This document shows positions 9,412 through 59,423 of a stretch of DNA of 64,000 nucleotides, piece by piece. The translations under genes were made by a program, and so were the position numbers. The DNA lies in the NCBI GenBank assembly GCA_000091205.1, contig AP006501.2; one strand, written 5' to 3'. The DNA comes from Cyanidioschyzon merolae. Its lineage: Eukaryota. Within the stretch, counting starts at the first letter, position 1. The number at the start of each line of letters is the position of its first letter. A model generated the notes under the pieces. That model saw nothing but the letters and a program-made list of their open reading frames with translations, did no database searches and was not told the origin of the DNA.

Positions 9412-10001
9412 GGTCTCTCCTGCTCTCCATAACGATTGTCAGCAGCCGATGGATGTTGCTGGCAGCGTTCAGGTACCGATTTCGCTGCCCCGGGTCGCTT
9501 TCGATGCATGATATGTACCGACGATAGTTGCGGTCTGCGCTTCGCTTGCCAGTTGCATCTTCTTCGTATACGGCCGCGGTGTACTCGTCGCTGCGATGAA
9601 ACTTGGCTCTGATTAGGTGTTTCCACACGTATCGATCGCGCGTCCTCTTCCCAGCGTCGTCCTGTCGTACGTGATTTCTTGCCTCATCGCTCGGTAGATG
9701 CCCTTGACGTGTACAGAGGGTTCCGCACGATGCACTCGTCTGTTTCCGCACCCGGTGAGGTACACAACGATCCCGGACTTGTTCTGGACGGATCCATCGG
9801 CGAGCGTGCTGCCCGCTCCACATGCACAAGTGCGTGCTGCTCCATTCGATAGAGGATATGCGGTACAAGATGTTGTCCGCGATGAAACAAGTACCAGAGG
9901 AAAGCTCCAGGCTCGAGAAAAAGTCGAGCCATTTCGATCTGTCTACGTGCCTTTTGTACAACGCTATGACGCTAGCTCCATCGAAAGCGATCACCGCGAT
10001 G
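9412..10001. repeat. Copy 1 of a ~590-bp near-identical (about 98-99%) duplicated segment; it contains the 5' part of dispersed-family element F1 and a stop-free 211-aa minus-strand ORF
   Basis: It is identical base-for-base to 39590-40179 apart from a few substitutions and indels (e.g. tgatttcttgcc vs tgatctcttgcc). The flanks are unrelated. Confidence 0.9.
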
Positions 10002-10150
10002 ACTCGAGTCCGCGACCAGGTCCCTCTTCCGTCCAAACAGAAGAAAAGGAGCGTTTCGAAGCATATCCCCTGAAAGGCATCATGCTGCTGTCAAATACCG
10101 TTTCGTTGACGACCACATAGACAGAAGGAGTCATCTTTCGAACATTCTTG
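9858..10150 (+). repeat. Dispersed ~300-bp repeat family, copy F1
   Basis: It shares 5' ...GATAGAGGATATGCGGTACAAGATGTTGTCCGCGATGAAACAAGTACCAGAGGA and 3' ...GCGATCACCGCGATGACTCGAGTCCGCGACCAGG...TCATCTTTCGAACA with F2-F5 (about 65-75% identity). Conservation is seen in two reading frames, which is nucleotide-level not protein-level. Confidence 0.7.
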
Positions 10151-11461: not shown

Positions 11462-13864
11462 CTCAGTCCTGTTTCATCGCCGCTGAAAGTATTCGAATGC
11501 TTTTTCGCAGTTTGAAGCAGGAAGTCGAAAACACGATGCCATGCGCCGTTTAAATCCTGGACGAGTTGTCTGTAAGATATATGATTTACCGGACAGTTCA
11601 AGGAGTACTGCATTCCTCATTCAGGTCAGTCATACGTCAGATAGTTGAGGAACACTGAATAAAACAAGTACATGCGCTCCGAGCCAAAAATCGATATTCT
11701 TAAAACGTGCGTTCTGTCAATGATAGGAAACGGCCAGTTGATCACCTTACGGAAAGGAAAAGCGATGATAGTAGAAACCAGTGGCGTCTCTGTTCCTCAA
11801 TAGTTTGTTCGTGTGGTCCTGAAAACTTTGGGATACATTGCGAAAACAAGTCCGATTTCATGCACTGCCATCTCGAACCGAAATCACATTTACAGAATTC
11901 CTGAAACGTTGCGGTCGTAGTGAAGCACAAGGAATTTGGTTTGTTTTCCCAGTCGATGGGATTTGCCTCGAACGAAACGGTCGAGGCGTCTGTCGGTATT
12001 CGAGGGAGCCGGGAGCCTCTCGTTTGTACGATCGAAATCGATGAGAACGACGAAATCATCATCTGGTCTACGTGCAGTGGGTTCCAGTGACGACCTCAGT
12101 TTCTCTCGTAGGGAACGGTCACACTGCAGCAACGAATGTACCGAATCATTCAAGACATTTCACCCTGACGTTTGGCGACGTTCTTTTGTTAGACAACGTG
12201 GAATTTCACCGTTCCCGTGCGCTGGAGCTTCTGCCGATTCTATCGGGGAATAAACCCGCTTTTCATTCCTTGGTACTCTCCGTGGCTGAATCCCATCCAA
12301 AGATTGTTTTATAGTGTGAAACGTAATGATCGCTTCACTGGACGAATCGCAAGATCGTCCAGCACACGATGACACACCGCGCCAGATTACGTCTTTCTTC
12401 GGCGAAGGTCCTCACCTGAGGGCATAACGAAATGCGTTCATTTCCAAGAACAAAAGATCTAATGGATGAGCTGGGGCGTGCACCTCAGGAGGTCTACATG
12501 GAAAGAAGGCAACGGGGCGTTTCGGCGACAGAAAAGTACCGAAGGCTGACAGAGCAGCCAATGCAACGGAGGGCACGACCCCGAGGATTCCTTGCATGAA
12601 CGAGTACCACCAAGGGCAATAAACGCATGGAATTCGTGAACCGACACATCACTGCTGCCATCAGTATGAGGAGATGTGCGTTGCTGAAAACGAGATCCGC
12701 GGACCTGAAGCGATCGAACCTTGTGGGGTAGACGCTCAGGCTCGAAGTCTACAGGGAAAACTCTGAAGCCGATAGCAGGCGGCCTGGTCAAAAGAGACTG
12801 GCTGGCGTTAGCGCATGTGTAGATATATCCACTTTATGGTCGTTGGACACTGTTTTGTGTTTCGCTGATCACATATAGAGTTTTGTGCGGCAGCGTCAGC
12901 CAGGCGGCGGCAACGCGTCTCATGGAAAGAATCCTATCGTTCAGCATCACAGAGTGAACCGGAGCAACACGGAATGACTGCACAGCGTCTGCAACGATCT
13001 GGTCTGAGCTTCTCCGTATCACAAAAATGCTATCGGAACGGCGTGGTGATCGCTTCCCCGGATGCCGATGACAACCGAGCATCCGTGCGATGTCTGGTTC
13101 GTCTCATCCATTGCATATCATGATAGAATCCGCCGCCCTACCTTTCGCGAAAACAGACAGCGCCATCAACCTTCCGGGACGCGTAGTAGCGTCCTGTGCT
13201 GATCTACCAATCTAGCGTTCAGTATTGAGCGTTGCATTCTGGGTATGTCGCGCACAGAATCAGTAGCGAGCTGCGCGCTCGCCATATCACGGGCAGAGGT
13301 GTTCCTTGCAGTTGCGTGCTTGATGATGTCAAATATGTGCATCGTGTTTATCAAAAATGTGTCGCTGTGCGCGTAACCGCAGGTTCCCAGCACGAGAATG
13401 TCGAAGCGACCTCATGGAACGATTGCTTTCAGCTAGTGTCTTGTGAAGACAGCGCCAAGCCGACTAGCTTCCGACCGGAAATCGCTGCCGCGTATCGAGC
13501 GTCCCAGCTTGCACCTGTGTTAGGCTGCACTGCCCACAGCATCGCTGCGTGCAACCGTAGCGCCCAAAAACAAGGCCAGTCTAGGTCTTGTACAACATAA
13601 AAACGTCTGGATCAGAACTGAAACCTCTTTCTCGATGACTGGCTCCTAACACGCCCGCATCCAAACGATTGAGGCTTGTATCATCTGCATGACAAGGGCG
13701 AAAACCTGGACCAGAGGACACCGAAGTTTCTCGTGTCCATAATATACAGATATATGCAGTTACTCCCTCGCACCCAGGGTCGCCGCGCCCCTCCGTGTAC
13801 TCCTCGCTGCTACCAGCTGGTAACGTGCGACCTCCTGAGCGTCGGGTTCCAGTACGCGTCTGAA

Positions 13865-31823: not shown

Positions 31824-33964
31824 AACGTTTACCGCAAGAGTCTACGGCATCGACGGGTGAATAGTGCGTCGCAGGATAACTCGTTATGAAGACGGATTAG
31901 CGACGGATTCGACTCCAGCTCTGTTCTAGAGGGCTTATCCTAGGAATCCAAGGCACCGCTGGGTTTACGCTGCGTCGCCGGTACACACAGGATGGAGGAG
32001 CGTGATTGCTGCACGTACCTGCGCTAGATTCGAATTCAGCTGGATGCACTGGGACGTTCACCTCAGGGTTTCAATGCGGGAGTCGGAACCCTTTCCGTCT
32101 AGGGATGCATCTACCTATGTGTTCAGAGCCCGCCTGGATCCAAGGAGTCGTCCACTGTACGCCATAGGATTGGCGATAGTGAGGTAGGCTCTAGTACGGG
32201 CTATGTGTTCTTCGTCATCGACAACAGAGTTCCGGTGCTTGTGCATCGTATTGTAATGCAAAGTTGACGAGCGCGCAGGTTCACTTGCGCGTTGTCCAAA
32301 CCAAGCCTCGTGATTATGGTGCCATTTCACATGAAATGTCTCGTTGGGTCGAAGAAACGCACATTTTCCAACAGAGATGGCATTCTGCGAATCAGTTTCT
32401 GATGTACATAAAAGTCACGTTACCCTGCTGTTACGAATACGCTCACTTTTCCCGATAGAAACGACAGGATGCGAATCAGTGTCCGATGCATAAAGCAGGC
32501 GTCACACTGCAATCCCCCGAGTTGTTGTCGTTATGCCTAGTGTGGTGAATGCCGGAACATCTGTACCAGTACGCCACTTTTATTCTTGTTGTTCGTTTTT
32601 CTCGCAGGTATCCAGCAAATGGATTGCATTCCATAGACTGCAGAAAGGCCCTCGACAGGCTCTACGCTTACACTGGTAGCTTGCGAAATGCAGCTTACCT
32701 GTCCACTTCAGTTATCCTACCTTGAGTAGGCAGATAAACCAGCCTTTTCCTAGGCCCTGTTCCTGAGGCCGTGCACCTGAGACAGAGACAATCAGACGCT
32801 GCCAAGACGACAGTCGCCTTGTCAATACTCTGTACGCCGTAGGTTCTGTAAACAATACTACTGAACAAGCCACAGGATGTCAGGTTTTCATATCTTTGAT
32901 ACGAACGGTGATATAGAGACACCGATGGGCAAAGAAAAAAGCTTGCATCTATGCGAGACCTTCGTGCGATGAATAACGCACTACTGATTTCCTAATGAAA
33001 TGCGAATGCCTCTTCATGGAGTAACGGGCGTTCGTCTCAATCGATGAGGATTCATTCCCGAGAAAACTGGCAGACCTGTATGTCGATACTCGAAATAGGG
33101 CGTACCGCTGTTCGTGAAGAAGAATCAAGCGAGCATTTCAACAACCTCAACCCGAGCGGTGATTCGACGGTATGGTAACGTACGCATTGCCAAATGTACA
33201 GACTCATTCACCACATCATCCTTCGTGGAAGCGCCCTTTGCACCTTCTCCTTCTGACATTCTTCTGTTCTGCTTGTAGACAACGGCATTTTCCATCACTT
33301 AAAAGCGTTCAAGGAGGAACCAGCTGCGTCTGGGGCTGAAGTGCGCTTCACGCGCGGCCATTTTCCATCGTTCAGTCCAGTCCAAGGCGTCTTCTCTGAT
33401 GTCAAAGACCATGCGTATACGCATGAACCAATGGACAAGCCTTTGGTATTTGTGACAGCGTCCGTCGATATGTCGTCCACTGGTACCCCGCACACCAGCT
33501 CCGAACGATTTTGTTGCTCCTCTTGTCGTGCGTAAGTGGGAGCGAAGGGGTTCTTTTCAGTTCACTGGCATGCTCGCGACCGAAAAGTTGACGAGAAGCT
33601 ACCTGAAGAACAGCAGATACATGTATAGAACAGACGAGTTTCGGATGCACCGTTCACCCCCAGCGTCTAGGTCCCGCGGAAAAACACACGGATGTAGAGC
33701 GCAGCGGCTATACCCATGCAATCCTGCCGCGTAAGGGAGTAACGGGAAAAACCACCAGACGAAGGAGTGGGGCGCCCTTCGGAACAGAGCACCAGGAAAA
33801 TAAGGAAGGGGAAACTGTCCAAGCGGAAAACAGCAGCATAGAATCGTTATCAAGACTTCGCTTGCAAACAAATCGACAGTGAGACTGTGCCCAAACGTGA
33901 GACGCAGGCCACCAAAATGAGTCCCGTGGCTTCTTAGACGAGGGCGGCTCGCCTGGTTTCCCTC

Positions 33965-34165
33965 GAGTTGACACACCTCGTTAACAGGCCGCTCACAGGA
34001 GTTCCAGATGCAGTGCTGCCATCAATCCACAGTACTCTGTCATTTTTCACGATCAATCCTTTTCGAGTTGACACACCTCGTTAACAGGCCGCTCACAGGA
34101 GTTCCAGATGCGGTGCTGCCATCAATCCACAGTACTCTGTCCTTTTTCACGATCAATCCTTTGCA
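33965..34165. repeat. 100-bp direct tandem duplication (x2), ~330 bp upstream of the TnpB-like fragment A
   Basis: GAGTTGACACACCTCGTTAACAGGCCGCTCACAGGAGTTCCAGATGC(A/G)GTGCTGCCATCAATCCACAGTACTCTGTC(A/C)TTTTTCACGATCAATCCTTT occurs twice. Confidence 0.9.
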
Positions 34166-34496
34166 CAGCATCGAATGCTCGGCACGGAGGATGCCACACA
34201 ACCTGCTTTCTCCAGAGATCGGTATAATCGATATTCGGGCGTAACAGACACCCGGAGGCATGCCAACAAATGGTGCAAGGGTGTCAGGTCCCATGTCGAC
34301 GCCCTGAGCAGCGTACCGAGTAAAGAAGGGTATTTCGTGCGCTCCATTCGCAGAGTTCAAGAGCGTCCGAATTGCATGCGATGATGACCCTTGACACGAG
34401 TTCACGAGGCGCCGCCGAGGCTGCCAACGAGAACGCTTCTCGTACGACGAAGAGAAGCGTTCATTCGCAGATATGTTCTATGCGCTGGGATAAGAA

Positions 34497-35060
34497 ATGA
34501 CCGACAACTCGCGTCGGATGGTGCTAGCCTGTGGTGACCAAGGACCTGGTGTCGCGCGCCGTGACTTCACTCCTGCTCTCTCGACGAGAGCGCAAAACGA
34601 ATGCAGGCATCCATTGTTTTCGATGCCCATCGACGCGTCCAGGACGGCAAAAACACATAACGAGCACGAATGTGCGCCGAATCACTTGCAAAATAAGTCG
34701 ATGAAACAAAGATGGATACACGGGATTGTGTTTGGTGCCCAGAGCAAATGCCAGATGGCGAGGAATTCGAACACGAGCGGCTTGCTATCGAGTGATTCTA
34801 TTCGAAATCATGCGTACAAGCACGGTTTGCATCGAGATCTGGACGCATCGATCAACATCTGGAAATGTCGCGTGCTTCGGGAACGTCCATCGGCTTCGTG
34901 TCTAGCGGACTTGCCTTTGGAATCAATCAGTACCCAGACTGGGCGTTGTGCTCAAGCGCTGTGGTCTCATGATGAGAAGCAAAACATTGATCAGGAGAGA
35001 AGTGAGTAGTTTTTTCTGAGTCCAAAGCACTGGTATGGTACTATTTTAGCTCTCCAGCAA
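34497..35060 (+). pseudogene. Fragment resembling the C-terminal OrfB_Zn_ribbon / RuvC-III region of a TnpB/Fanzor-type (OMEGA) nuclease (copy A). The homologous region continues out of frame after the stop.
   Basis: ...KCQMARNSNTSG...HAYKHGLHRDLDASINIWK compares with TnpB C(x2)CG...H-[AR]-D-V-N-A-A-x-N-I. It is a paralog of copy B: NIxKxxVLxxRxSxxCLAxxPxE is shared. The next block HWYGTIL (35037-35052 gcactggtatggtact) matches copy B's in-frame HWYDTRL but is frameshifted here. No intact RuvC-I/II was found upstream, and stop codons lie at 34245, 34308 and 34491 in frame. Confidence 0.4.
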
Positions 35061-38396: not shown

Positions 38397-39589
38397 CCCC
38401 TGCAGAGTTCATGCAGCGAGCTCGTGCATGGAAGGTCTCCTGTTCTGAATGTCGCGTTGGAACGCTCGAGGTCGTTACCTGGGATTCGCTCCACGCTCAA
38501 TGCGCACCAAATGCGATGTGGCATTCTCAGCGGCATCATTCCATTAACATTTGAGACTGGTTATCGCGCATTTTCGCATCCGGTCAAACTGTTTTCGTGG
38601 TAATGCGCGACATGCCCTGAAGACTGCGAAACATGCCGCTGGACGTTCCTTGGACGGCTGCATTCGCAATGCCGATGGTGCGGTCGTTCTTGATAATGAA
38701 GACATCGGACATATTGTGCCAAACTTTGTGATTCCGCTGGTCGCGTGCCCGCTACCCCAGAATATCCAAATAACGAGCTGTGGACGCGCCCCAGCGAGTG
38801 ACGCTGGACACAAGACGACGCTGTTTCTGCCACGAACGATTGACTCGGTTATCCATGATGTATTTCATTGCGGTGACTTGTAGTTGTTCTCGTTGCATTT
38901 GATGCTCGAGCTGGAGCGCTCCCCCACCGTTGACTGCAGATGAAATGGAGACGACATCCGATGCTGTTTTCGTCGAAGCATTTACTCATTTGGATCATAG
39001 GACGAGAGAGCACGCCAGGCTGTGTGCGAATTTCTCGGATGCCGGAATGATGCGGAAGGCCGCATCACTGACTGAATCGTTTTTCGCGTCAGCACATGGC
39101 GATGCCCACGGGAGAAATCGTTGCTTGCCTAACTGAATGCTTGCAGTGACAGGCTGCAAGTGCATTTACGGCAACATGTTCTAGCATTATCAATGAAATA
39201 AATGCACCCTAAACGTTTGCCCAGCTCGTGCCAGAAACCCGAAATACCGATGCAAGAGCGGAATCCTGCAGAGAGACAGCTTCCGCCAAAGCCACCCGAA
39301 CAGCGCCTAGCGTTAGCAACGTCAGTCGACCTGGGCGCAAGACGCCCGGTTGCATGGTATTCGCTGCCTTTTTCGTCGCATCTATATGCTTGGTGTTCAC
39401 GAGGGTAGCTGTAGCGCCACGAACAGTGATGAATCCTCGTCAGCATAGAATGGAATAGGTCTTCTCATGTGACATGGGCATACATGCGAAAGTTTGGGGC
39501 TCTCCCCATCGTTAGAAGCACCAGCTTTTGCGGGATTTTTCTTCAACTGCTTCCTTTTTCTTTGGCATATCGCTGGCTTTCCATAGGTT

Positions 39590-40179
39590 GGTCTCTCCCT
39601 TCTCTCCATAACGATTGTCAGCAGCCGATGGATGTTGCTGGCAGCGTTCAGGTACCGATTTCGCTGCCCCGGGTCGCTTTCGATGCATGATATGTACCGA
39701 CGATAGTTGCGGTCTGCGCTTCGCTTGCCAGTTGCATCTTCTTCGTATACGGCCGCGGTGTACTCGTCGCTGCGATGAAACTTGGCTCTGATTAGGTGTT
39801 TCCACACGTATCGATCGCGCGTCCTCTTCCCAGCGTCGTCCTGTCGTACGTGATCTCTTGCCTCATCGCTCGGTAGATGCCCTTGACGTGTACAGAGGGT
39901 TCCGCACGATGCACTCGTCTGTTTCCGCACCCGGTGAGGTACACAACGATCCCGGACTTGTTCTGGACGGATCCATCGGCGAGCGTGCTGCCCGCTCCAC
40001 ATGCACAAGTGCGTGCTGCTCCATTCGATAGAGGATATGCGGTACAAGATGTTGTCCGCGATGAAACAAGTACCAGAGGAAAGCTCCAGGCTCGAGAAAA
40101 AGTCGAGCCATTTCGATCTGTCTACGTGCCTTTTGTACAACGCTATGACGCTAGCTCCGTTGGAAGCGATCACCGCGAC
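39590..40179. repeat. Copy 2 of the ~590-bp near-identical duplicated segment. It is truncated relative to copy 1: similarity to the dispersed family ends at 40179, whereas copy 1 continues to ~10150.
   Basis: The alignment to 9412-10001 was read directly. The minus-strand ORF 39397-40266 shares the same 190 aa. Confidence 0.9.
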
Positions 40180-40847
40180 ATCCAAAAACAGAAGCGAACT
40201 ATGTATGAGCAACGAAATACCAATTGCTTTCTCTCCACGGCAGACGTCGAAACGTTGAACAGCCATCAGTATTCTCGAAAGTTTGCCTTTTCATTAGGAA
40301 GGTCCCGTGACCCACACGAGTCTACGAAGCCCGTGCTTCATGATCTCGCCAGTGCCGAGTGCTATGGCGCGATCTGAGCAACTCTTACGGAACGCAGTTT
40401 GTTCTGGGACTAGGGGCGGGGCGGCTGCATCAAGATATGTCCCTGGTCGCAATGGTCTCCCAGCATATCGCTTCGTGCTATCACAGGCCGTTGGTCTGTC
40501 TGCACAGCCTGCAGGCTCCCAGAATAATGAAGGATCCCGATTCTGTGACCAGTGAAGCACGCCTGGAGCCGAATACCTTAATGGTATCGCATAGCCGTTC
40601 TGTCTCCGTACTGCATATGCACCAGCGGTGTAAGCGCACCTTCAGGTGCATCACAAAAGGTTAGGTGCACGACAGAGCATACGACATAACCAGTACATCC
40701 GAGAGAAGGTCTGAAAAATGGAACTTCAAGCTAGGGTGTACTATCATGGACGCTTTCCCAAAAGCCAATATCCATCTCACAATCTAGCACCCATGGTCCA
40801 TGGAAACGGCCTGTCAAACGAAAAAAGGTCCAGCGATCTCCGCGATG

Positions 40848-41458
40848 TATATGAGCGCGCGCTCACAGAAACGCATCGCCGCCTATGCGATCATCAGAAG
40901 AACAGATTTTTTTACTAGGGAAAGCCTGGAAAAGCGCGAGCGCGCGCTCACAGAAAAGCATCGCCGCCTATGCGATCATCAGAAGAACAGATTTTTTTAC
41001 TGGAAAGAGCCTGGAAAGGCGCGAGCGCGCGCTCACAGAAACGCATCGCCGCCTATGCGATCATCAGAAGAACAGATTTTTTTTACTAGGGAGATCCTGG
41101 AAAGGCGCGAGCGCGCACTCACACAAACGCATCGCCGCATATGCGATCATCAGAAGAACAGATTTTTTTACTAGGGAGAGCCTGGAAAGGCGCGAGCGCG
41201 CGCTCACAGAAACGCATCGCCGCATATGCGATCATCAGAAGAACAGATTTTTTTTTACTAGGGAGAGCCTGGAAAGGCGCGAGCGCGCGCTCACAGAAAC
41301 GCATCGCCGCATATGCGATCATCAGAAGAACAGATTTTTTACTAGGGAGAGCCTGGAAAGGCGCGAGCGCGCGCTCACAGAAACGCATCGCCGCATATGC
41401 GATCATCAGAAGAACAGATTTTTTACTAGAGCCTGGAAAGGCGCGAGCGCGCGCGCTC
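40848..41458. repeat. Tandem array of ~7 units of 79-88 bp (minisatellite). Each unit has a perfect 12-bp palindrome GAGCGCGCGCTC, a 10-bp palindrome CGCATATGCG and a T6-T9 run.
   Basis: The unit AGCCTGGAAAGGCGCGAGCGCGCGCTCACAGAAACGCATCGCCGCATATGCGATCATCAGAAGAACAGATTTTTTTACTAGGGAG recurs at 40923, 41008, 41094, 41179, 41267, 41350 and 41429. ORFs spanning it are artefacts. Confidence 0.9.
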
Positions 41459-42798: not shown

Positions 42799-44454
42799 CG
42801 GGCATGTACGCATGGAGAAACAGTGTGATTCGCTTTCCGCGCGTTTTTGCTCAAGTAGTGCCTTGACTTGTTAGGCCTTGGATACACTGCTCGTTGCAGA
42901 ATACACATACTGTACTAGTCTGGACTTGTCTGACTCGGCTAATAACGGATGTCTGACTTTCAAGTGCGGTCTCGAGAGGCAAGTTGCCGGCGACTCTATT
43001 TGGCACTATCGTTGCAGACTCTGAAGCACCGGTAACGACCTTCTCGTGTACATTTTATCCGCTTTTTTTTTGGCAAAGCCCGCGCTTCACATACCGCCCA
43101 GACCACTGAAAGCTTCGGCCGCTGAACGCTTGTTCAATGCCGTACAGCTGTTCACGGATATCGTGGAAAAGGACACACCGCATCGTCGTCGGATGGACGC
43201 CATGGTAAATTGGTGGTGGTGGTGGCGTGTACATTACCCAGTATCTCGTGCTTTATGATGGCGATGGTGATGGTGATGATGGAAGCTACACTGATCCTTT
43301 TTACATATTGGAGCAAATAACATTTGAGTCTATTTCAGGGGGAAACGTATATTTACGAAAAAGAAGCGGTTTGTCATGCGACGACACTCGCAATAAATGT
43401 CGGTTGTCGCCAGTACAGCGCCTCGAGCCTGGTTCCCGTAAACCATCTGCACTGTAAATCGTATCTGAGACCTGTGTGCATCTTGTCTCATGTGGAGATG
43501 CAAGCGAGTGCCTTGGCGTGTGGAGTGCTAACGCACGAGCCCCAACTGACTCCGCGTGGCACGGTATCCTCTGACGCTACAACCGACGCGGATACATCAT
43601 ACACATCGGATCAATGCAGAGGGCGCATGTGCGATGCCCTTTCGCACTGCACCATCCGGGATGATCCTGCTGCATTCGACTTGTGATGCACGTTGCGCTT
43701 GATCGTAGTGCGACCAATGCAGAATTACCCGCGTCGCATGCGTATATGGTGCGAGAATGCAGGGCGTCATAGGTGCTTCTCGAGGCGCACGCTTTCACTA
43801 GACGATGTGTCATGCAGGGCGACGGGGAATCACACCGCTCTGGAAGAGCGGCTGGATATCCCCCAGCGCTATTTATTGTATCCATTTAAGCGTAGAATAG
43901 TATGGGGTCGTTTCTCGAACACGAACCCAGTAGATGAAGTCTGGGTCTGTTTGAGGTTTGATCAACACCCGCCTTTGTGGACTTTTTATGCGACTGCTTC
44001 CTTTTCCTCTCCCTGACATCCTAACTTGAGTAAACCGGTCACTCCTTTTGCCTCCAGCTCCTTTATCAGCACTCTAAGGATGCTGATGATGGCGTTGATG
44101 TGCCGATTGCGCTGCTTCCGGCAGGTGCCGACTTATTTCATGTATCGGCAGACGTTACGATCTACGCTTGACTTTTCAGTTGCATCTTCGTGGGACAACT
44201 CCTCGGTGTAGCCGTCACTGCGGTGAAATTGCGCTATGGTGAGGTGTTTCCGTCTATCGACAACTAATTCTCCATTTTAGCGCGCACGATGGTGCGTCAA
44301 GACTTTTTCATAGCGCGGCACATGACCTTGATGGGAACAGAGGGCTCCGCTTGATACCCGATTCCTTTTTCGCGCTAGGTGCTATGCCCTACAATCACGG
44401 ACTTTATCGAGGTGATACACACGACAAGTGCTCTGTCCGCTGAACGTGCAGGCG

Positions 44455-44775
44455 ATTCCATGGTATAGAGGATCTGCAGAATGCGATACTGTCCATGTTG
44501 AAGCAGACACCGGACGGAAGGCAGATGCAGGATGGAGAACAAGTTCAGAAACCTTGCATCTGTCTTCGCTTCATATGCGCAAAGCGATCATGCATGCTCC
44601 AACGAGAGCGGTCGCTGTACTGATTAGAGTCCAATTCCAGGATCCGTTTCCACATAGGCGGGAGAGCATGGCGCTGGAAGACCCAAAAAGGAACTACACC
44701 AGCTCCAACGACAAGATCGTACAAGGAGTGTGCACGGCGTTTTGTTACGATACCGATAGATGAGTTTCGAACGTC
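44455..44775 (+). repeat. Dispersed ~300-bp repeat family, copy F3
   Basis: GGATCTGCAGAATGCGATACTGTCCATGTTGAAGCAGACACCGGA at the 5' end; GAGTCCAATTCCAGGAT internally; GAGTTTCGAACG at the 3' end. Confidence 0.55.
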
Positions 44776-45236
44776 CTGTACACACCATGAACTGGGGTGC
44801 AAACTTCAGAAAGTCGAGGTGGAAAAGTGCCAGCGGAGCCCTGAGGATATAAAAAAGTATGGACCGCTGATGGAAGAGCAAATGGAAAGGAGAGCGAAAG
44901 TGCGAGGATTGCTTGCGTCATTAAGTACAACCAGTGATGGCAAGAAACGTATGGAGTTTTTGAACCGAGACCTGAACGCCGCTACCAGTATACGGAGATG
45001 TGCGGTGCTGGAGAACAGACCTCCAGAGTAGACAAGAGAGAACTTTATTGGACAACCTCTCAAAGTCGAACTATATGAGAAAAAGTTGGAAGCAGTAGTA
45101 GGTGGCCGGTCCAAAAAGACAGAGGCGTCTGCACGTTAGTTGGAGATGTTTTGTCTAGCGCGGGTTTCTCGCCACTACTGTACCACTGGCAGCAACGTTT
45201 TTCTTTTGAAAGACGTTTGTTTCCAGGGGCCTCTCT

Positions 45237-48222: not shown

Positions 48223-49241
48223 GCGAACAAATCAGGCGTCATCAGATGCACTTTATCTCATACCGCATGGTAGAACCCCACCTACAACGTCATCAGGACC
48301 GTGTGAGGTGAAGCACACTGCGGGCTACCCAGTGGACGAGCGTGCGCTCACGCCTGCAACAGAACTTGTACGCTCCGAGGCTCTCGCCCAGAGGAAGCCA
48401 GCGATCATAGGATACAGCATGCGGAGCGTTTAACGGAACTAGAAATCGACGAGAGCCAGCGATACCCGTCCCTGGCAGCTAACGAGCGATGAAGCAAATG
48501 TGCAAGCGCAAGACCAAGGCGCGCAGAGGAACCGGTACGGTAGACGAACGAGAATACCTGACCATAGCCATGTGTCACCGCTGGCGGAGACGTCCCGAGC
48601 CTCAACACAATCAGTAGGGAACTGACGAGCAACGCACTACATCGCGACGACCCCCCTGTGCATAAAATGCGTAGAAAAGAGCTGGAAGCGTCTATATCAG
48701 CACCTCAGCGCTGCCATCAACATCCATCAACTGCTGAGTACGGCACCAGAGGTAAATGAGAGACCAGCGTATTCAAACCCGGAGATAGGAGAGACGAAAA
48801 ACAAAGCAGTCGCAGAAAAAGCCAACATATGTTGGTGTTGGTAACAGAAAAGACAGACCGAACCGTATCAAGTCTACATCCGAGTCAGAAGACCCGTTCC
48901 ACTTTATGCGGAAAGAGGTGCGGCGTCATCCAGAAGTGTGCGCGGAGCTTTCAGCTTCCGTAAAGGCACGTCAGCAAACTCGACAGTTGCATACCAGCGG
49001 CGATAACCGAACCACAGAATGCAAAACATACCCAAGACGACCAGAGCAAGGAGAAACAAACGCTCTTTTGTCGCACAAACTCTCGAGTTTAACCGAACCC
49101 GCGTTCGCTCTGGAGCAGTCGGAAGCCCCGTGGTGTTCAGTCTAGTGCGCCCAGCGGAGCGGAGGCGGCTCCCTACAGACCACCGGTGCGACCGCATCGA
49201 CCAGGGTCGCCAGCGACGCTCCAAAACTGACCACGAGTCGC

Positions 49242-52200: not shown

Positions 52201-53774
52201 GTCGACGTCGCCGCTGGGAATGAAGCCCATGAAGCGGGATGACCGTCCGATTGAGCGGCTAGTCGCAGCAATCGACCATCCGCATACAGTACGCAAAGTC
52301 GCGTGTTCTCTTGTTGTTGTTTTTGCTGTGGATCTCGATAACGGAGGGAATCCACGCAACCATCGAGCGGCACCAGCGAAAGCTCTTGAGGTGCACCAGC
52401 TTTGCGCTGAAACCAACGGAGCGTCACCAGCGCACTGCTTTCAGCGTCGTTTTCAAGGCGAGTTGGCATCTCGAGTCGACAGTCGCCGAGACTCCAGTAC
52501 AAGCGCCCCGCACAATGCAACACATCGTCCATGGAGAGGTCTGGGCAGTGCCCCTGGTACGGTCGACGCTCGTAGCGAGAGAGCACCAACCAGGGGAGGT
52601 CCTCGGGTAGCCTCAGATCCGCGAAAGTCGACTGCAGCGCTACCCATGTGGGTAACGACCGAAGAAACTGCACCCGCACGTCCAGTGCTCTGCGCAAGTC
52701 GCTCGCTGCTCCTGCTGCAGCTTCTGGTTTCCGCAGCCGCCAACAGAGTATGCCGACAACGCGATCGTAGATCACTAGTCCCGTCTTTAGGCGGCACGAC
52801 TTGCGCTCCTCATGTCGACATCCGGAACAGGGGCATTGCAACACCAGACAAGCACGAGGCAAGGGCCAGTTTAGTTGACTGGCCCACGGCCAAGCCTGGA
52901 CCAATTCCTCATTCTGCTCTAGCGTAGCATCTTCGAAAGCAAAGGGCGCCGATGCGGCTCTACTGCGGAGCGACAGCACTGCAGGCGGCTGTCCAGACAC
53001 TGCGACGAGCACCTGATGAACGTAGACAACACCGCAAGGACCTGGGCGTGGGTCCGCCGCGCGATTGCAGTCGCTCAATTCTGGGCGCGTGGTCGTCGTA
53101 TCCGAATAGGTCACCGTAGACACCACGCTCTCGTCTGAAAGCAGAGGCATGAAAGCCGCCCCAAGTTGCTTGCTCAAGTCAACGGGATTGTGGTCGGCAC
53201 TGCCAGTCTCAGTTGATGTGAGCGTCAGCGTGCGAGCGTGGAGCGTCAGTGGACTGGTCGGTGCGGTCTGCGTCCAGTAGAGTTCCACAGCTTTGAGCGC
53301 ATGTGCTGCGCAAGGTCCGTGATCACCGGCGCACACCAGCACCAGGGCATCATGAGTGCGGCCACGAGCACGAAACGCCCCGCGAATGCACTCGCAACGC
53401 TCAAATCCAAGCGCTTTCTTCACATGAAGCCGCTGCAAAAGTTCCCCATCAGCGACGCGGAACACTGCGAGCTCTCTCGCTCGGTACGCAATCGCAACGG
53501 GTACGCTCGTACTGGACGCCGCAGCTTCCGCTAAACCGGGTTCAGCGGCAATGTTTGAAACGCGAACCAGGTTACCCCGGACAACGCCAAGCCAGCGCTT
53601 TGAGCGTTCCGTCCAGTGCCAGCCGAGCGTATCAGGTGGCATCCTCGACACGCACCTGCAGCATCCGCGGGTGCGCTGCAGGAGGCGCTGTCCACGCACC
53701 TGGGCAGCAGGCTCCCGTGAATGCGCCGGCCGCAGCGACACGAAAATGAACGTTGCGAGGACAAGGCTCCACAC
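49242..53774 (-). CDS. Large (1510 aa) conserved-looking hypothetical protein, possibly a beta-propeller/alpha-solenoid scaffold; family not recognised
   Basis: A single uninterrupted 4.5-kb ORF in a GC-rich genome is far too long to be spurious. It is Trp/Gly/Asp-rich with repeated motif-like blocks. No catalytic motifs were recognised by eye. Confidence 0.6.
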   Translation of the reverse strand: MWSLVLATFIFVSLRPAHSREPAAQVRGQRLLQRTRGCCRCVSRMPPDTLGWHWTERSKRWLGVVRGNLVRVSNIAAEPGLAEAAASSTSVPVAIAYRARELAVFRVADGELLQRLHVKKALGFERCECIRGAFRARGRTHDALVLVCAGDHGPCAAHALKAVELYWTQTAPTSPLTLHARTLTLTSTETGSADHNPVDLSKQLGAAFMPLLSDESVVSTVTYSDTTTTRPELSDCNRAADPRPGPCGVVYVHQVLVAVSGQPPAVLSLRSRAASAPFAFEDATLEQNEELVQAWPWASQLNWPLPRACLVLQCPCSGCRHEERKSCRLKTGLVIYDRVVGILCWRLRKPEAAAGAASDLRRALDVRVQFLRSLPTWVALQSTFADLRLPEDLPWLVLSRYERRPYQGHCPDLSMDDVLHCAGRLYWSLGDCRLEMPTRLENDAESSALVTLRWFQRKAGAPQELSLVPLDGCVDSLRYRDPQQKQQQENTRLCVLYADGRLLRLAAQSDGHPASWASFPAATSTEASWYLLATSWLKQLRPLEEPLGFINEQLVWTTFGRLLRAATESDGRVSALTPRTYPLTHDPAVVAAETQWDEASETITAAVVTSVAAERHPASSPSPLTAASAAYVRARWSVERGAFLERLQYGFVMHHALSTEALEQQGRPTRLFALENEALLVALLSSEWPNRWTRVLVLHHRWEAGSSGSEPDWSAAFCSTDSTVALHQWLSWGEAIQVCTKQFVLLQWQKNRWTRLCIHQSDLTNDAFATDDARLFVLGQGHRLCLWMRSGSCAPLWYPYLSVELDAPVATITLDFRFLKVSRWLHDGWLVFALKWAGFSELSVAPPVTADLFSGQASSQEAGAGEALLRAAPVRSALRRTLNPTLSLELLGLGNGALVVNGECCFPFGFTEIQLRPCPATPATAACTTPGGDGDASVSPTISMVDPRSVEPPNEAMTPLLLLLVDGQLWLGVTSEHCSLGGQASALTLWPVLFPNSHPVRLVDCQAVMRTPTGIRCCDCIRRNDIDIRISTDDGTEQRGECAWRFCTHTQDDRIDDLDYESNSEHHHVHWSECACSTAPDVGSSGSRQHQEGNEATSSALLQSGRHLARLSLLWLDTDGIVHWGLVECALNGLRTHCKAGERPITALEYDACTDSIWTLLDGRPVALVPDSLRPRVIHDARGVLSNAFVDLCIPPVTPSEAFPASVRGEVLRALGDRLIALQDTNESVYLATARLEAGDVWLQAYPLETVGGDTTSSIGRLPRVGQRLRLGTSLVPGTVLLVIERPRSFVLEAWTSRRDASSTWASEWRPERVAQCTLSGVDTFRLDPWSRPLVLTEIAGDGTLLLSGMYPDTPMSIPFRPGQHVELWRPNASNHVQLIGCCSRVRVYFGASGLVTVDHRTTSPAPREQVEGGARSPQAAIPARFSTGADARDSSNCSCTSCCSCSCCYPWPQGYVPCFYQPQVLTAGVVLSRYPNGHLVFSGAESHWATFSDGACLVWYPRRFSAGPC

Positions 53775-54133
53775 ACACGCTACAGTGCTACCGCGAATGC
53801 ACTCGGTACTTCGCGCGAAATAGCGGCTTTGGCGTGTGTCGTACCTGCGAGGCAGGTTTCCGCTCTCTGGAAAGCGTCAGGAAGCGCAGGATACCGGGCA
53901 TCGATCTGCCGAGGAAAGCGTGCCAAGCCGTGGCAACTGTGATGTTCATATATAGCTCACGATGTCAATTTTCGTTCCTAAATGGGTTCCTGTCATCGAG
54001 CACTGCTCAATGGCACGACTGGGCTGTCGGCAGCCGCGCTTCCTGCGCGATCAGGTCGAGTCGTGTGAGGCATTATGATCTTGTACAAGTTGTACAGGGA
54101 ACCGTTACATGTGTCTCTATAGTCGGCCCGCTA

Positions 54134-54346
54134 GTCTGCCTGAACTGGTAAACGAGTATCATACCAGTGCACTGCTCCAACCCGGATATTTCTTTTCATC
54201 CAAAGTCTGCCTGAACTGGTAAACTAGTATCATACCAGTGCACTGCTCCAACCCGGATATTTCTTTTCATCCAAAGTCTGCCTGAACTGGTAAACGAGTA
54301 TCATACCAGTGCACTGCTCCAACCCGTATATTTCTTTTCATCCAAA
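54134..54346. repeat. 71-bp tandem repeat x3 overlapping the 3' end of TnpB-like fragment B. Each unit contains the inverted repeat CTGGTA-N11-TACCAG.
   Basis: GTCTGCCTGAACTGGTAAAC(G/T)AGTATCATACCAGTGCACTGCTCCAACCCGGATATTTCTTTTCATCCAAA occurs three times. Confidence 0.9.
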
Positions 54347-54833
54347 GTCTGCCGCCATCCATGAAAATACCCACACTGCGCACGAAATGATTCTCAGGAA
54401 ACTTTGCTAGGCATACAACCGATAGGCGGTTCGGGAGCACAAAAGATTTCGGGATATTAATCGAGGTGTTCACGTCTTGGTGCAGAGCGTGCTTGCACGA
54501 CTGATTGCTGGTGGATCCATGCCAGAAGACGCCGCACACACATTCCATTGCCTCGCCATCTGACGCTCGATCAGCGTGCCGTCTACAACGTCCAGCGACG
54601 GGCTCTGTTTTCCGCTCTTCTTCTCTGTCTGTTTCATCGTGCATTCGCGCTTGTGATGCGTTTATGTCGTCCTGAGCGCTTCGGTGGGAATCGATCAGTA
54701 CGGATCCCTGCATTTGTTGTGTGCTCTCGTCGAAGGAGTAGAAGTGCAGCCTTTGCACGCGCGATCGCAATTCCAGTGCCATAGACTGACATGAAACGAC
54801 GCGACCTGTAGGTCGTTTAAGTCTACAACGCAT
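54267..54833 (-). pseudogene. Fragment resembling the TnpB/Fanzor-type nuclease C-terminus (zinc ribbon plus RuvC-III-like motif), copy B; probably a truncated relic
   Basis: RRHADRASDGEAMECVCGVFWHGSTSNQSCKHALHQDVNTSINIPKSF compares with ISDra2-type TnpB ...TCSECG...W.CACGAHHDRDVNAAKNI. An in-frame stop lies 42 codons upstream of the Met (no stop between it and the ATG), so at most ~230 aa versus >=400 for TnpB. The C-terminal codons are part of a 71-bp x3 tandem duplication. Confidence 0.4.
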
Positions 54834-56951
54834 TGAATGAAGTGGCGAATGCAGGCGTCCTGCCTGGGTACAGCCGAATGAGTGTATGAGTAGAGCGCGC
54901 GCGCTCGTACGTCTGCCAACGACCGAATCGCATGAATCCGATAGATGTTCATATACGCTCTATATGAAGTGTCAAATAGCATCCACTTCTCTGCACTATG
55001 GCGCTCAGCGTTTCGGCGTAGGTCCCGCTGCCGTCATGCCACTCCATCGTATACCTCTGGACGCGTATCATGCCCGACTTGTGGCGTAGCGAGCACTGGG
55101 GAAATTCAGAAGCTTCATCTGCTTCCCATTCAGGTCCTTGCTTCAGAACACTTCAATTATCGGTGCGTAGACGAGCACGATATCCTTGGATATAGGGTAC
55201 ACGTGCGCCATCAATATTCGCTCTTCATCTACCTAGAGTGGTTGGTAGCGACTCTCGTTGCTGGGGTCGGGGTGAGGTTTCACGAGCTTCACGAAGTGCG
55301 TCCATAATGATATTCTGTCGTTCTTCACTGTCTTGGTCGTTTTCATTCCATTTCGTATCGGTAAACGAGAAGCCTTTGACAAGCTCCATCAGTTCTGCTC
55401 GCAAAGTTGCTCGAATGCCTCATAATTCCTCGTAGAGACATGCCGTAGCGCACTTTGCAAACTATTCACAACTCAAGCATCCACCGTGAAAGCATGCACC
55501 ATGATATAATACACGGAGAGCAACTCGAGCGGAAGTTTCTGGAAACCAGGGCGCCTGGATTCAGGGAGCGTGTCTTCTCTGCTCTTGACGCTTCAGTTCA
55601 GGAACATGTCACAGCGCAAAAATTCATGCGAGGCAGTTATCACGCTTCAACTGTGCTTTGAACAAGTCCTCCGCCTGGCCGCGGTCGTCGAGAGCAGAAA
55701 CATGACCTTGGACGAGGTCTAGCGACACTCGCTCTGTTTGCAATACTTCGTGCGAGCTCGGTTTCGCCTCGAGCACTGCCGCCACCAGTTCGTGATCCAC
55801 CTCCAATGACATGCCGAAAAACCGCTTTATGGATGTGAACGAGTCGTCTATTGGTTCGTGCTCGTAAACATAGGTCTCAAAGCAGAGAAGACTCCATGGA
55901 CAGGATAGAACCAGGGAGACTACGCTGGCACGAAGCACAGCTCATCGCTAGTCTGTGCTGTGCAGTCTGTGACCGCTTTTGCGTGATTGAAAGCAACGTC
56001 GTCTAAAAGCAGAACAGACTAGTTTGCAAAGACGCAGTTAAGAAGGGAGCCTCGACCAAGATTGAGGTCATGCATTATCATGCCCGCTTCACAATTGTTC
56101 ACTGATCATATCATGGCATTGCGTCTTGGGCCATTGTTGTCTTTATATGCTCCTGTCTCTTCTTTACGAACAGCGCTTTGCCCTTGGTTGTTGCGTGCCT
56201 AGTTACAGGTCTTCGCTTTATCCGGAATATACTCTCAATGAGCGAGACGAGCACCCGTCCCTCCTCTCAAACGTGTTCCGGCTTCCGTAAAACTGCGATG
56301 AAGGACTGTCCTACGAACGGCGATTTCCCATCGAGGCGCCCGTCTTCTGTCCCCATGTGTATCCCTTCAATACCAATCGTGTGAACTGTGCGGAAGCTGT
56401 ATACCGTGCGGTATCTCTTATGGTTTTTCTTAGAAAAAAAAGCGATGGACTAGAACAGATTGATCAGATAATTGTCATGTGGATCCTCTTTGACACATCC
56501 GGTTTTAGATACGCAACGTACAGGATAAGGACTAGAAGCCGAATGCTTCACCCGCCTGCTGACCATGGAATAATTTACTTGCAGAAGCAAGGCCCTTTCT
56601 CGCAAGGTAGCAGTCAGATTATCAAGTCATTCCTTGACCTTTCTCCAACTTACCGGATACGTTCCTTTTTGTTGAATACCCGTGAGAAAAACGAAGAAAA
56701 GCAAAAAACTGGCTGTCGCAGATTCTCTATGAATCACCGCTCTGAGGATAACGTTTCGGGATCGATGTGTCGAGCGAGGCATCCACCAGACGCGCGGAGC
56801 CCGGGACCCCGCAGTCGGAGGAGCGGCAACAATTCTGACCCGGGATCGTTAGATACAACGCACCGCATATCATACCTGACTTTAGGAGAATGCTCCATTC
56901 GAGAGATCTTCGGGGTGCTGAACCTGCCCCAGAAACTAGCCATAGTGCCGC

Positions 56952-57083
56952 AAGCTCCCCATTGGGCGCTTTATGGAGACAGAGTGTCATTGCCCTGGTC
57001 ATGGAGGTCACGACGCAAGCTCCCCATTGGGCGCTGTATGTAGACAGAGTGTCATTGCCCTGGTCATGGAGGTCACGACACGA
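56952..57083. repeat. 66-bp tandem duplication x2
   Basis: AGCTCCCCATTGGGCGCT(T/G)TATG(G/T)AGACAGAGTGTCATTGCCCTGGTCATGGAGGTCACGAC occurs twice. Confidence 0.9.
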
Positions 57084-58617
57084 GACACGTTGACGCTCTG
57101 AACGCCATGCATTGACGCGAATTCGGCGCTGAACGAATTAGATGGTATCCCAATCGAGCAGTAGGCAGCTTGTCTGCATAATGTCAGTACTATAGAGAAT
57201 GAGTATCTCGGAAATGAATTCCGGAGTATTTTGACGAATACAAATACGCTGGTCGAAGAGGAGTCTCCATTGCGCGTAGCATTTCTTTTCGGAAGCTGCA
57301 CCCTTGTCGGCTACTGATAGAACGATGGACGACGTACAATATTCCTGAGATTCACATGATATCTGAACTTTATGTAGGTGACGAACCTCGACATTCGACG
57401 TGTAGCAGTAAGGGCCTTGGGAGTTATTCTTCGTTTTCGGCCTCTCGATAGTTTTGTTTTTCAGAGGGGCTCTTTCGACATTGTACCGCTGGGGTTCTTC
57501 GTGCGATTGTCTTCAAAATGATTCGTGACGTCCCTGAACAAGCGTTCATACAATTACCCATTGCATTGACCATTGCGTGCCCGCGGGCCCGCACTTGGAT
57601 CCGTTCCTCACAAGTCATCTGCTCAATTCACGCTGTTTTTTTGCGCTTCATTGTTTCAGCTTTTAGGCAACTAGTGGACACAGCGATTCACGCCGCTGGA
57701 TTCATGACGAACAGAGAAATCTCCGTCGTGCCTTGGCAACATCGTCACAAGTTTATGCGGAAAGTTCGACGAACTCTTCAAGTCATGGATAAAATCTGAA
57801 AGACAAATCCACGTGTCTTTGTACTCGTCACCGGTACGGCATACGACATAGGCATGATACCTCTCAGGAGGTATACCCACGAAAGGCTTTTTCTCCTCTG
57901 GGTACTTAAAAAAGGATGTTGGTCACGGACTTTCGTCATCGCAGAGATCCGTACCAGTAGAGATTTCGTCTCCGTTTTGCACGAAGGAAGCATCCATAGA
58001 TCGACATCCCTCGACTTGTGCTCCGGTCCGGATTCTGCTTCCTGTACTCATTTCATCATATATAGCATTTCGTTCACCAGACCCTCTATCGAATGGAACA
58101 GCTTGCGCCTGCCTATGTAGCGCACAGCATATTCACCAGGCGCGTCGCATAGAAGATGCTCTTGGTCGTAGTGCACGATATCGGGTGTGGAAACTGACGA
58201 TTTGTGCATCGGCGGGAGCATGCTGGACATGTCAAGTGCATGTACCGAGCGTTGAAGCAACCATTGACGCACCGCAGGGCAGCGCTCTAGTGATGAGGAT
58301 GTTCGATGGACACTTGGAAACACCTGACCACAGCTACGTGCCAACGCTATGAATAGCGCACCAAAATTGCATAAGAAGATGATGCTGAAAATTGCAGGAG
58401 ATGCGTAGATCCCAACCTCCTGTTGAACACGAAATGCATGGACAACAGCCAGCAACTGCGAAATCGAGCCTTGAATGCTGCCATGCACACCGTTCACAGC
58501 TTGTGAACGGTGCTGGATCGACATTAGCGCCAAGCGTCTTAAAGGCCGCGAGTAAGTGTGAGGAATAGGAAGCAGTTCCAAAAAAAGCATGCTCGCGAAC
58601 GCTGGCGTTCATGACTC

Positions 58618-58828
58618 GGGTCGAAAGAGACCCGAACATTAGCGCATATGCACGTGTTCATAGCTTCGTTCCACGCTATGCTGATATGGGTCTGAAAAGA
58701 CCCGAACTTTAGCGTACATGCCCGTGTTCATAGCTTCGTTCCACTCTGTGCTGGTATGGGTCTGAAAAGACCCGAACTTTAGCGTACATGCCCGTGTTCA
58801 TAGCTTCGTTCCACGCTATGCTGATACG
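58618..58828. repeat. 70-bp tandem repeat x3. Each unit begins with a GGGTC-GAAA(GA)-GACCC stem-loop (6-bp stem, GAAA-type loop).
   Basis: GGGTCTGAAAAGACCCGAACTTTAGCGTACATGCCCGTGTTCATAGCTTCGTTCCAC(G/T)CT(A/G)TGCTG(A/G)TAT occurs three times. Confidence 0.9.
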
Positions 58829-59423
58829 GATCTAGAGAGTTTCCCAAGACGAGCCGATGTGCATACCCGTAGCACATGTGGCATTCCGCACCCTCGATAG
58901 AATCATGTTCGATTCATCGATCCAAAAGTCAAAAAAGTTGCTGGTTAACCTGTATCCCGCATCTTTTGAGAGCAGCGCTCTAGATTCACAGGTCTACCTC
59001 ATAATAACCCGTACTCTTGATGCATTTGCGGATGCTATCCAAAAAAGACCTATCCATTGCGCTAGTTCATGGCTTGGATCACGTTCCACGCTACATAGCG
59101 ATGATTCGCGAATATCCACAGCTCTTGAAGCAGGCTCTCTCACGTGGTATCACGCAACCCTGCAAATAATCTTGACCACGAGAAAGCAAGTGTTCTTAAA
59201 CTGATCTGCTGCGGTTGTTGTGCGTTGCTGCGCGGTACAGAACCAAGTTCGGTGCACGTTACCCCGGTGGTGTTCTCGAAAGAGCGTCGCGTTTGGCGGT
59301 TCCAGTTGCAAAGGCCCAAGTCGTGCGTTTGCGGAAAGACAGGTAGCACTACAACACTTTGGCCTGGCTTCATTGCTCTCCATGATCCACTTGCTCGTTC
59401 CCTGATCAAACTAGTAGAGGCAC

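Follow-up and report, generated by a model that had tools for sequence, protein, structure and literature searches.

Copy B, a minus-strand locus at 54149-56032, is very probably a dead copy of a Fanzor1 transposon whose last 71 bases later became an ordinary, strain-variable minisatellite. In eukaryotes, Fanzor1 is the homologue of TnpB, an RNA-guided nuclease. The locus lies in a 64-kb stretch of DNA, which is referred to at its full length as the window. Two ORFs of the window are identical to the C. merolae 10D proteins BAM83003 and BAM83006, and eukaryotic domains (GLE1, Tfb4, mitochondrial carrier and peptidase M3) occur in further long ORFs. This identifies the window as nuclear, not prokaryotic, DNA of the intron-poor red alga Cyanidioschyzon merolae 10D.

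We compared the window with the 734-aa Fanzor1 protein CMe-1 and with the 3169-bp consensus of the CMe-1A family, both taken from the supplements of PMC3627910 (protein: supplement 3). CMe-1A has ~150 copies, each ~80% identical to the consensus. It is the sole Fanzor family listed for C. merolae, lacks TIRs and has the classification 'unknown' (PMC3627910). In a tblastn search of the window, CMe-1 matched copy B at 55080-54539 (CMe-1 aa 472-649) with E = 1.6e-14, a single sum statistic shared by two segments. When a 2.5-kb stretch of locus B was searched alone, the E-value was 1e-18. One of the segments, at 54772-55080 (minus strand), aligns in a third reading frame with CMe-1 aa 472-572 (24% identity) and contains several stops. 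The other, at 54539-54754 (minus strand), lies in the ancestral frame and aligns with aa 578-649 (36% identity over 72 aa, two stops). It reads TPAPTTRTYKEC...IPVDEFRTSYTHHE..., and the second-frame reading over aa 578-649 is KGCTSTPSTRAHNKCRDPY*SIPTEALRTT*THHKRECT...GTLIERQMARQWNV, with asterisks for stops. The search of the 2.5-kb locus also returned the RuvC-III remnant LHQDVNTSINIPKSFVLPNR at 54426-54485 (minus strand), which corresponds to CMe-1 aa 669-688 (VNRDFNAAINIRRCAVLEKR) and sits in the frame of a 188-aa ORF. In all, the homology of copy B to CMe-1 is spread over three frames with at least five stops. On its sequence, copy B is a TnpB/Fanzor-type relic, a long-dead pseudogene with stops and frameshifts. 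Its homology to Fanzor goes through one intermediate family, CMe-1, whose own relation to TnpB is as given by Bao & Jurka 2013 (PMC3627910). The matches bear out the original prediction of a TnpB/Fanzor-like fragment with a RuvC-III-like HQDVNTSINI, the latter being aligned to NRDFNAAINI of CMe-1.

Self-comparison of the window with blastn and tblastn revealed that copy B is one of three diverged, collinear copies. Paralogue A1, with DDE and Fanzor remnants, is located at 33098-35057 (plus strand; CMe-1 aa 464-730, E = 9e-24), and paralogue A2 at 2662-4342 (plus strand; CMe-1 aa 465-621, E = 6e-15). The three copies are 65-77% identical in DNA, and their gene neighbourhoods are unrelated. In A2, a region corresponding to CMe-1 aa 54-140 directly precedes aa 465 and onward, and A2 therefore has an internal deletion. 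The window also contains pieces of the CMe-1A family itself. A fragment at 44564-45121 (extending to 45215) covers CMe-1 537-722 with 74% amino acid identity and is 89% identical in DNA to consensus bases 2614-3169; a further fragment at 12447-12770 (extending to 12808) covers CMe-1 605-713 with 51% amino acid identity. A TE-N2_CMe-like piece at 40816-40208 (minus strand) matches bases 4-611 of the CMe-1A consensus in blastn (76% DNA identity), and BLASTP of the 289-aa ORF at 39397-40266 against CMe-1 gave no significant match. The spacing of A2 and A1 and that of a 300-bp pair with 99% identity are both ~30.2-30.6 kb, which suggested a segmental duplication of ~30 kb within the window. We rejected this idea, as the intervening genes are unrelated and the transposon pieces alone match.

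B, A1 and A2 look like an older, long-dead sister family of CMe-1. They occur in the same genome as CMe-1A, share with it the homologous C-terminal half of Fanzor1 (aa 464-690), and have recognisable counterparts of the motifs TPAPTTR...IPVDEFRTS and NRDFNAAINI. The CMe-1A ORF closes at a TAG that is followed by a short 3' tail, as that of copy B probably did, and in both families most copies are dead. In contrast to CMe-1A copies, locus B has only 24-36% amino acid identity to CMe-1 and no detectable DNA similarity to the consensus. The B-type family further differs in having an internal deletion and, in its 5' part, a DDE_3-like remnant where CMe-1A has 635 bp that are TE-N2_CMe-like. Judged from the three copies in the window and their orthologues, the B-type family appears to be low-copy. 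An ancestral-frame protein search that included CMe-1 returned 317 matches; the 120 listed were all of CMe-1 type, sharing 53% or more identity with CMe-1, and no B-type paralogue was among these 120 of the 317.

Fanzor1 proteins are described by the motif D-X(125,275)-[TS][TS]-X-X-[C4 Zn finger]-X(5,50)-RD (PMC3627910). The [TS][TS] element, which follows the RuvC-II strand (..DE.RTS..), is present in the ancestral frame of B (IPTEALRTT*THH, corresponding to IPVDEFRTSYTHH in CMe-1), with a stop directly after the motif. From the TS motif to RD, B lacks the C4 zinc finger and, in the ancestral frame, contains a single Cys; the CMe-1 consensus itself has only two Cys and no CxxC pairs. In the RuvC-III motif, B has kept the Asp and the N..NI residues, with Arg replaced by Gln, and A1 reads HRDLDASINI. 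The RuvC-I part of B is not recognisable: upstream of aa 464 there is just a 20%-identity alignment with stops, and no RuvC-I aspartate was found within an intact ORF.

Profile-profile comparison backed the Fanzor assignment independently. Alignment of a B/A1/A2 profile with the C-termini of Fanzor1 proteins from Chlamydomonas, Chlorella and Pythium in hhalign (P = 0.001) paired the ..E..RT[ST] and RD-N-A-A-N motifs, the B motif being set against W-RD-V-N-A-A. Pfam searches with stop-masked sense-frame translations of B, A1 and A2, and with a 170-aa ORF of A1, yielded no TnpB-type match. Formally, the proposed HMM check is thus negative, with no match in Pfam or NCBIfam. However, intact CMe-1 itself reaches only E = 0.52 (11 bits) against PF07282, and the missing match at B is therefore uninformative. 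With a first three-copy alignment that was mostly outside the ancestral frame, a PDB profile search returned nothing and a protein-database search returned only the orthologues of the three window copies. An AlphaFold2 model of a 429-aa protein from the CMe-1 family, built with 33 homologues, had a mean pLDDT of 41 and a pTM of 0.24, too low for a fold search.

At the 3' end of copy B, Tandem Repeats Finder identified a single array at 54133-54353 (minus strand) with a period of 71, 3.1 copies, 98% matches and zero indels, and a second, separate repeat search confirmed it. Here the original prediction, a 71-bp unit present three times over the 3' coding end, holds. Read from the sense (minus) strand, the array consists of three full units (54353-54283, 54282-54212 and 54211-54141), which are 97-99% identical to each other, and the first 8 nt of a fourth, GGCAGACT (54140-54133). 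A tandem repeat of this kind is far beyond chance. The GGCAGACT sequence opens every unit, and its fourth occurrence runs into AG, creating the stop TAG at 54133-54131 (CAG GCA GAC TAG in the frame of the last unit). This TAG, located directly past the array (...PVQAD*), is the putative ancestral stop of the Fanzor1 ORF and the likely counterpart of the CMe-1 C-terminus, ...HVSWRRFV-TAG. Past the RuvC-III motif, the frame of the 188-aa ORF runs to ...MDGGRLWMKRNIRVGAVHWYDTRLPVQAD, which resembles ...VVGGRSKKTGRRLHVSWRRFV* of CMe-1 in its length and in some residues. From the likeness of these tails, the 71-bp unit probably represents the final 23.7 codons of the ancestral ORF, with the former TAG at the end of the array. 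Both borders of the unit carry the 8-nt GGCAGACT microhomology. An 8-nt direct repeat is the type of substrate used by replication slippage or unequal exchange, and its presence at the borders is a signature of microhomology-mediated duplication.

The array overlaps the 188-aa ORF (54267-54833, minus strand) at its 3' end. This ORF appears in the ORF list, runs across the pseudogene, includes ECVCGVFWHGSTSNQSCKHALHQDVNTSINI and ends within the array at ...HWYDTRLPVQADFG*. As 71 is not divisible by three, the ending ...ADFG* arises at the first repeat junction, so that the final two residues and the stop of the ORF are made by the junction. In tblastn with CMe-1, only residues ~99-186 follow the ancestral Fanzor frame. 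Upstream of these, the CMe-1 alignment lies in other frames with stops, so residues 1 to ~98 are an out-of-frame reading; the ancestral frame has two stops there. Searches of the ORF against Pfam and NCBIfam with E-values up to 10 gave no match. The ORF is accidental, and taking it as the Fanzor reading frame, as had been done, misassigned about the first 98 residues. The same error accounts for the two zinc knuckles that had been described: the CVCG of the 'intact first CxCG' straddles the frameshift, and CMe-1 has KVRGLLALVS at this position, while the 'degenerate second knuckle', SCKHALHQD, corresponds to KKRMEFVNRD in CMe-1, a lineage that has no C4 finger there.

We compared the array with orthologous loci from hot-spring metagenomes, whose flanks are 99% identical to the window. 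The number of units is four in L001 (4.1 copies) and three in L013 and L014 (3.1 copies each), as in the window (3.1); in L016, at least 2.5 units precede the end of the contig. Three polymorphic positions within the unit are arranged differently among the units of each strain. Head-to-tail 71-bp units, within the 10-100 bp typical of such repeats, with a copy number that is polymorphic across strains constitute a minisatellite, or VNTR. The array resembles an ordinary VNTR in its 71-bp head-to-tail organization, its 8-nt junction microhomology, its 97-99% identity, its three or four copies and the reshuffling of unit variants among near-identical strains; nothing notable sets it apart, the array merely occupying the former coding end of a transposon. 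'Plain local duplication', which had been offered as a fallback reading, fits the repeat as found. In A1 and A2 the unit sequence occurs just once, in a diverged form (at ~35020-35050 in A1), and neither the CMe-1A consensus nor any of seven aligned CMe-1A 3' ends contains the array. When 241 million metagenome records were scanned with a pattern that fitted both the B and the A1 versions of the unit, the orthologues of B and A1 alone matched. Neighbouring arrays of the window were also compared between strains. Two of three vary, namely a 65-bp array (two copies here and one in L016) and an 85-bp array (7.1 copies here and 5.1 in L012), and a 100-bp array is constant. The window also holds an array with a 70-bp period.

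We propose that a DNA transposon once carrying a Fanzor1 gene gave rise to the fossil copy B. The gene would have died long ago, leaving a C-terminal third that is now distributed over three frames with stops. The duplication would have come much later, via the flanking 8-nt GGCAGACT sequences and most likely by slippage or unequal exchange, and would have involved the final 71 bases of the dead ORF, up to just before the TAG. The resulting minisatellite would keep gaining and losing units between strains, with the hairpin in each unit as a passive passenger. The duplication probably took place long after the gene had died, because the units are 97-99% identical and the element copies only 65-77%.

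The hairpin of each unit consists of ACTGGTA-N11-TACCAGT, a 7-bp stem that encloses the predicted inverted repeat CTGGTA-N11-TACCAG and is present in all three units (54286-54310, 54215-54239 and 54144-54168, minus strand). It is not beyond chance: perfectly paired stems of 7 bp or more that enclose a 3-15-nt loop number 100 in the 64-kb window, corresponding to ~0.11 per 71 nt, or about one per 640 nt. Folding of a single unit gave a z-score of -1.2, and that of a 321-nt sense RNA spanning the whole 3' region a z-score of -0.7, so the RNA folds like shuffled sequence and the expectation of a structured RNA is not upheld. The equivalent regions of A1 and CMe-1A fold equally ordinarily. The minimum-free-energy fold of one unit includes the ACTGGTA/TACCAGT stem on the plus strand; on the minus (sense) strand it has a shorter stem and loop at the same place, and the centroid retains part of the stem. 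In an alignment of the three family copies, the hairpin arms are not conserved in A1 and A2, and the 3' arm is gone. A search of Rfam with E-values up to 1 over 53500-56500 returned no match. By z-scores, arms and Rfam alike, B, A1 and A2 do not share a conserved, thermodynamically favoured structure. A conserved terminal hairpin that we considered from the seven aligned CMe-1A 3' ends was also rejected, as its consensus GCCGCCA/TGGCGGC decays without compensation; dead CMe-1A copies are unable to report selection on structure.

The hairpins had raised the question of whether the triplicated units are present or recent functional omega-RNA scaffold modules that have been amplified. Fanzor and TnpB guide RNAs arise at the 3' end of the transposon and may overlap the last codons (PMC10432273, PMC10530073); in GtFz1 the overlap is 17 aa (PMC10432273). 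The unit, with its 7-bp hairpin in every copy, spans exactly the final 23.7 codons of the ancestral ORF, and the CMe-1A consensus continues for just 59 nt past the stop. Given this short tail and the 3'-end origin of omega-RNAs, the duplicated stretch may coincide with what was once part of the guide-RNA scaffold sequence of the ancestral element. However, the likeness to the omega-RNAs of TnpB (ISDra2) and Fanzor (SpuFz1, GtFz1) is one of location at the element 3' end only, and the array lacks conserved structure, covariation and an intact nuclease. We know of no omega-RNA organized as a tandem array, the known ones being single-copy scaffolds. The gene for the partner protein is wrecked by frameshifts and stops, and the units (98% identical) are far younger than the pseudogene (65-77%). 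The number of units is unstable between strains, comparable hairpins occur about once per 640 nt in the window, the arms are gone in A1 and A2, and neither the folding (z-scores of -0.7 and -1.2) nor Rfam (no match at E up to 1) singles out the region. A functional guide-RNA module is therefore a highly improbable explanation. The predicted structured and duplicated guide RNA fails on each of these points and on the much younger age of the duplication: the 3' structured segment is absent from A1 and A2, and the repeat is, among the copies compared and the metagenome records scanned, unique to this locus, which refutes the omega-RNA part of the prediction. A guide-RNA role for the array is unsupported, because the array is young and variable, the hairpin is lost in the paralogues, the folding is ordinary and Rfam is empty; the array probably has no role in Fanzor or omega-RNA biology.

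Two other explanations would give the array or the ORF a present function. The array could have been co-opted as a promoter or 5'-UTR element of the downstream gene on the same strand, a 1510-aa ORF (listed start 53774, minus strand) ~360 nt beyond the array, with the copy number tuning expression. At five of six independent metagenome loci, the CMe-1A 3' end lies 18-129 nt upstream of the called start of a same-strand host gene, and with the window copies included nine of the 11 genes downstream share the strand of the copy (one-sided binomial p = 0.033), a pattern that copy B fits. This sample is small and the p-value marginal, though, and gene-call starts in metagenomes are unreliable. In a compact genome with short intergenic spacers any insertion adjoins a gene, and nothing ties regulation to the repeat itself as opposed to the element. 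We consider this co-option unlikely. Less likely still is that the 188-aa ORF is a real, possibly young, transposon-derived protein gene. The frame is uninterrupted both in 10D and in a related strain (188-aa product, two substitutions), and JGI gene callers predicted the gene. However, it is unannotated in the 10D proteome, its exact sequence was not found in the protein collection, and it has no family match in Pfam or NCBIfam. About half of it is an out-of-frame Fanzor remnant, its stop codon was made by the repeat junction, and both differences from the orthologue are non-synonymous (R82C and R180S). A dead Fanzor1 copy with a later minisatellite at its former coding end is the reading that we retain.

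Upstream of this Fanzor remnant, copy B contains a sub-threshold Pfam match to a DDE_3 transposase at 55872-56021 (minus strand; VLLLDDVAFNH...FVPAxSPWFYPVHGVFS). Searches with stop-masked translations gave DDE_3 E-values of 0.0037 for B, 0.027 for A1 and 0.17 for A2, all under the gathering score of 28.6 bits. The signals fall on a common region of the profile and at collinear positions, ~1.1-1.3 kb upstream of the Fanzor C-terminal remnant in all three copies. A stitched three-copy profile aligned in hhalign with the mariner transposases of PUl-1 and PUl-2 (P = 4.7e-4, 99 columns), pairing the DN..H and PPYSP.LNP.E motifs, and an HMM score against PUl-1 was above that of all 1000 shuffles. 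A tblastn search of the window with the PUl-1 transposase matched the expected places with weak E-values (1.6-3.6). A PDB profile search with the DDE alignment returned chance matches alone and no transposase, and a search for TIRs or a TA duplication found no inverted repeats paired at corresponding places of the three copies, which are possibly too decayed. By these profile comparisons, the DDE remnant is probably a transposase of the Tc1/mariner/IS630 type, and the carrier of mariner type.

The arrangement resembles that of PUl-1 and PUl-2 from Pythium ultimum, in which a Tc1/mariner-type DDE transposase is followed by Fanzor1 on the same strand (PMC3627910, Fig. 3). It differs in that B, A1 and A2 have no detectable TIRs or TA duplications, and in that the B-type transposase is below the gathering score, truncated and full of stops. 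We tentatively suggest that B, A1 and A2 form a hitherto undescribed sister family, older than CMe-1, with a Tc1/mariner DDE_3 gene directly upstream of Fanzor1, a proposal that we hold to be finely balanced and slightly on the doubtful side. If true, the sister family would provide the C. merolae Fanzor1 lineage, 'unknown' in Bao & Jurka, with a transposon superfamily, and would extend the association of mariner and Fanzor1 to the red algae. In a bolder version, based on analogy with CMe-1-type elements that have ~60 nt after the stop, the 71-bp unit would correspond to the 5' portion of the scaffold of the ancestral omega-RNA. Intact CMe-1A copies, some of which exist according to PMC3627910, might in that case lead to the guide RNA of a red-algal Fanzor.

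The weight of these findings for biology at large is small. A motif-level guess, here from RD-N-A-A-N-I to a TnpB-like protein, can hold even though every curated profile misses, and features such as zinc knuckles, when taken from the ORF of a pseudogene, can be artefacts of frameshifts. The annotation of C. merolae gains an old, diverged repeat family derived from Fanzor1 and a probable remnant of a mariner-type transposase. Minisatellites of 65-100 bp in transposon-derived spacers are strain-variable markers, as the 71-, 65- and 85-bp arrays differ between strains, and could serve for strain typing of Cyanidioschyzon populations.

The window contains genuine pieces of CMe-1A, the published Fanzor1 element family of C. 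merolae. A 3' fragment at 44564-45215 (plus strand) is 89% identical to consensus positions 2614-3169, and an older 3' fragment at 12447-12808 (plus strand) retains 71% identity in DNA and 51% in amino acids. The 5' end is represented at 40208-40816 (minus strand) by a TE-N2_CMe-like module, the 5' module type of the consensus, with 76% identity to consensus positions 4-611. The CMe-1-like fragment at 12447 is preceded, at a distance of about 150 nt, by the plus-strand peptide FIPWYSPWLNPIQRLF (12262-12309), which is similar to the PPYSPxLNPxE motif of Tc1/mariner transposases. The site would be a further case of a DDE-like remnant adjoining a Fanzor remnant, the fourth when counted with the dead paralogous copies B, A1 and A2. 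In precomputed annotation, PF26935 (DUF8286) covers the middle part of several products of the CMe-1 type (P0031, P0035 and others; L021 901-1485 and L023 652-1305 in the metagenome loci); it was not reproduced by direct hmmscan of P0031 and CMe-1, the 734-aa Fanzor1 protein, at E-values up to 1.

A second dispersed repeat family is present in the window in five copies of related DNA (9342-10139, 39520-40178, 43967-44632, 48696-48814 and 57798-58416), with 99% identity in one 300-bp pair (9419-9718 and 39598-39897). On the opposite strand at this family lies a 289-aa ORF (39397-40266, minus strand), probably the 'copy A' of the original prediction, whose C-terminal end (...SDEYTAAV...QRNRYLNAASNIHRLL) carries a RuvC-III-like motif. 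The ORF has no Pfam match, and its BLASTP similarity to CMe-1 is not significant. The family may be a further Fanzor-like one.

Besides the 71-bp array, four minisatellites with periods of 65-100 bp (33963-34162, 40853-41454, 56949-57079 and 58618-58833) sit in spacers that are rich in repeats and apparently non-coding. The 85-bp x 7 array at 40853-41454 adjoins the TE-N2_CMe-like module. Compared with near-identical Cyanidioschyzon loci, copy numbers are 7.1 versus 5.1 (L012) for this array and 2 versus 1 (L016) for the 65-bp array, and 2 in both the window and the compared strain for the 100-bp array.

In five of seven copies (L019, L021, L023, L024 and window 45216-45219), TTTG comes directly after the last bases of the CMe-1A consensus (...GAAAGGCG). 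This points either to a consensus that stops 4 nt early or to a flank that is TAM-like or preferred as a target. In 5/6 independent loci (L018, L019/L020, L021, L023, L024 and also L022), a same-strand host gene has its called start 18-129 nt downstream of the 3' end of the CMe-1A copy, metagenome gene starts being unreliable. These genes encode a PI3/PI4 kinase, a hydrolase, TACC, MCM and an LRR protein. Across all 11 copies, which take in window copies B, A2 and 12447-12808, the downstream gene is on the same strand for 9 (binomial p 0.033). Possible explanations of this arrangement are insertion preference, survivorship and promoter donation.
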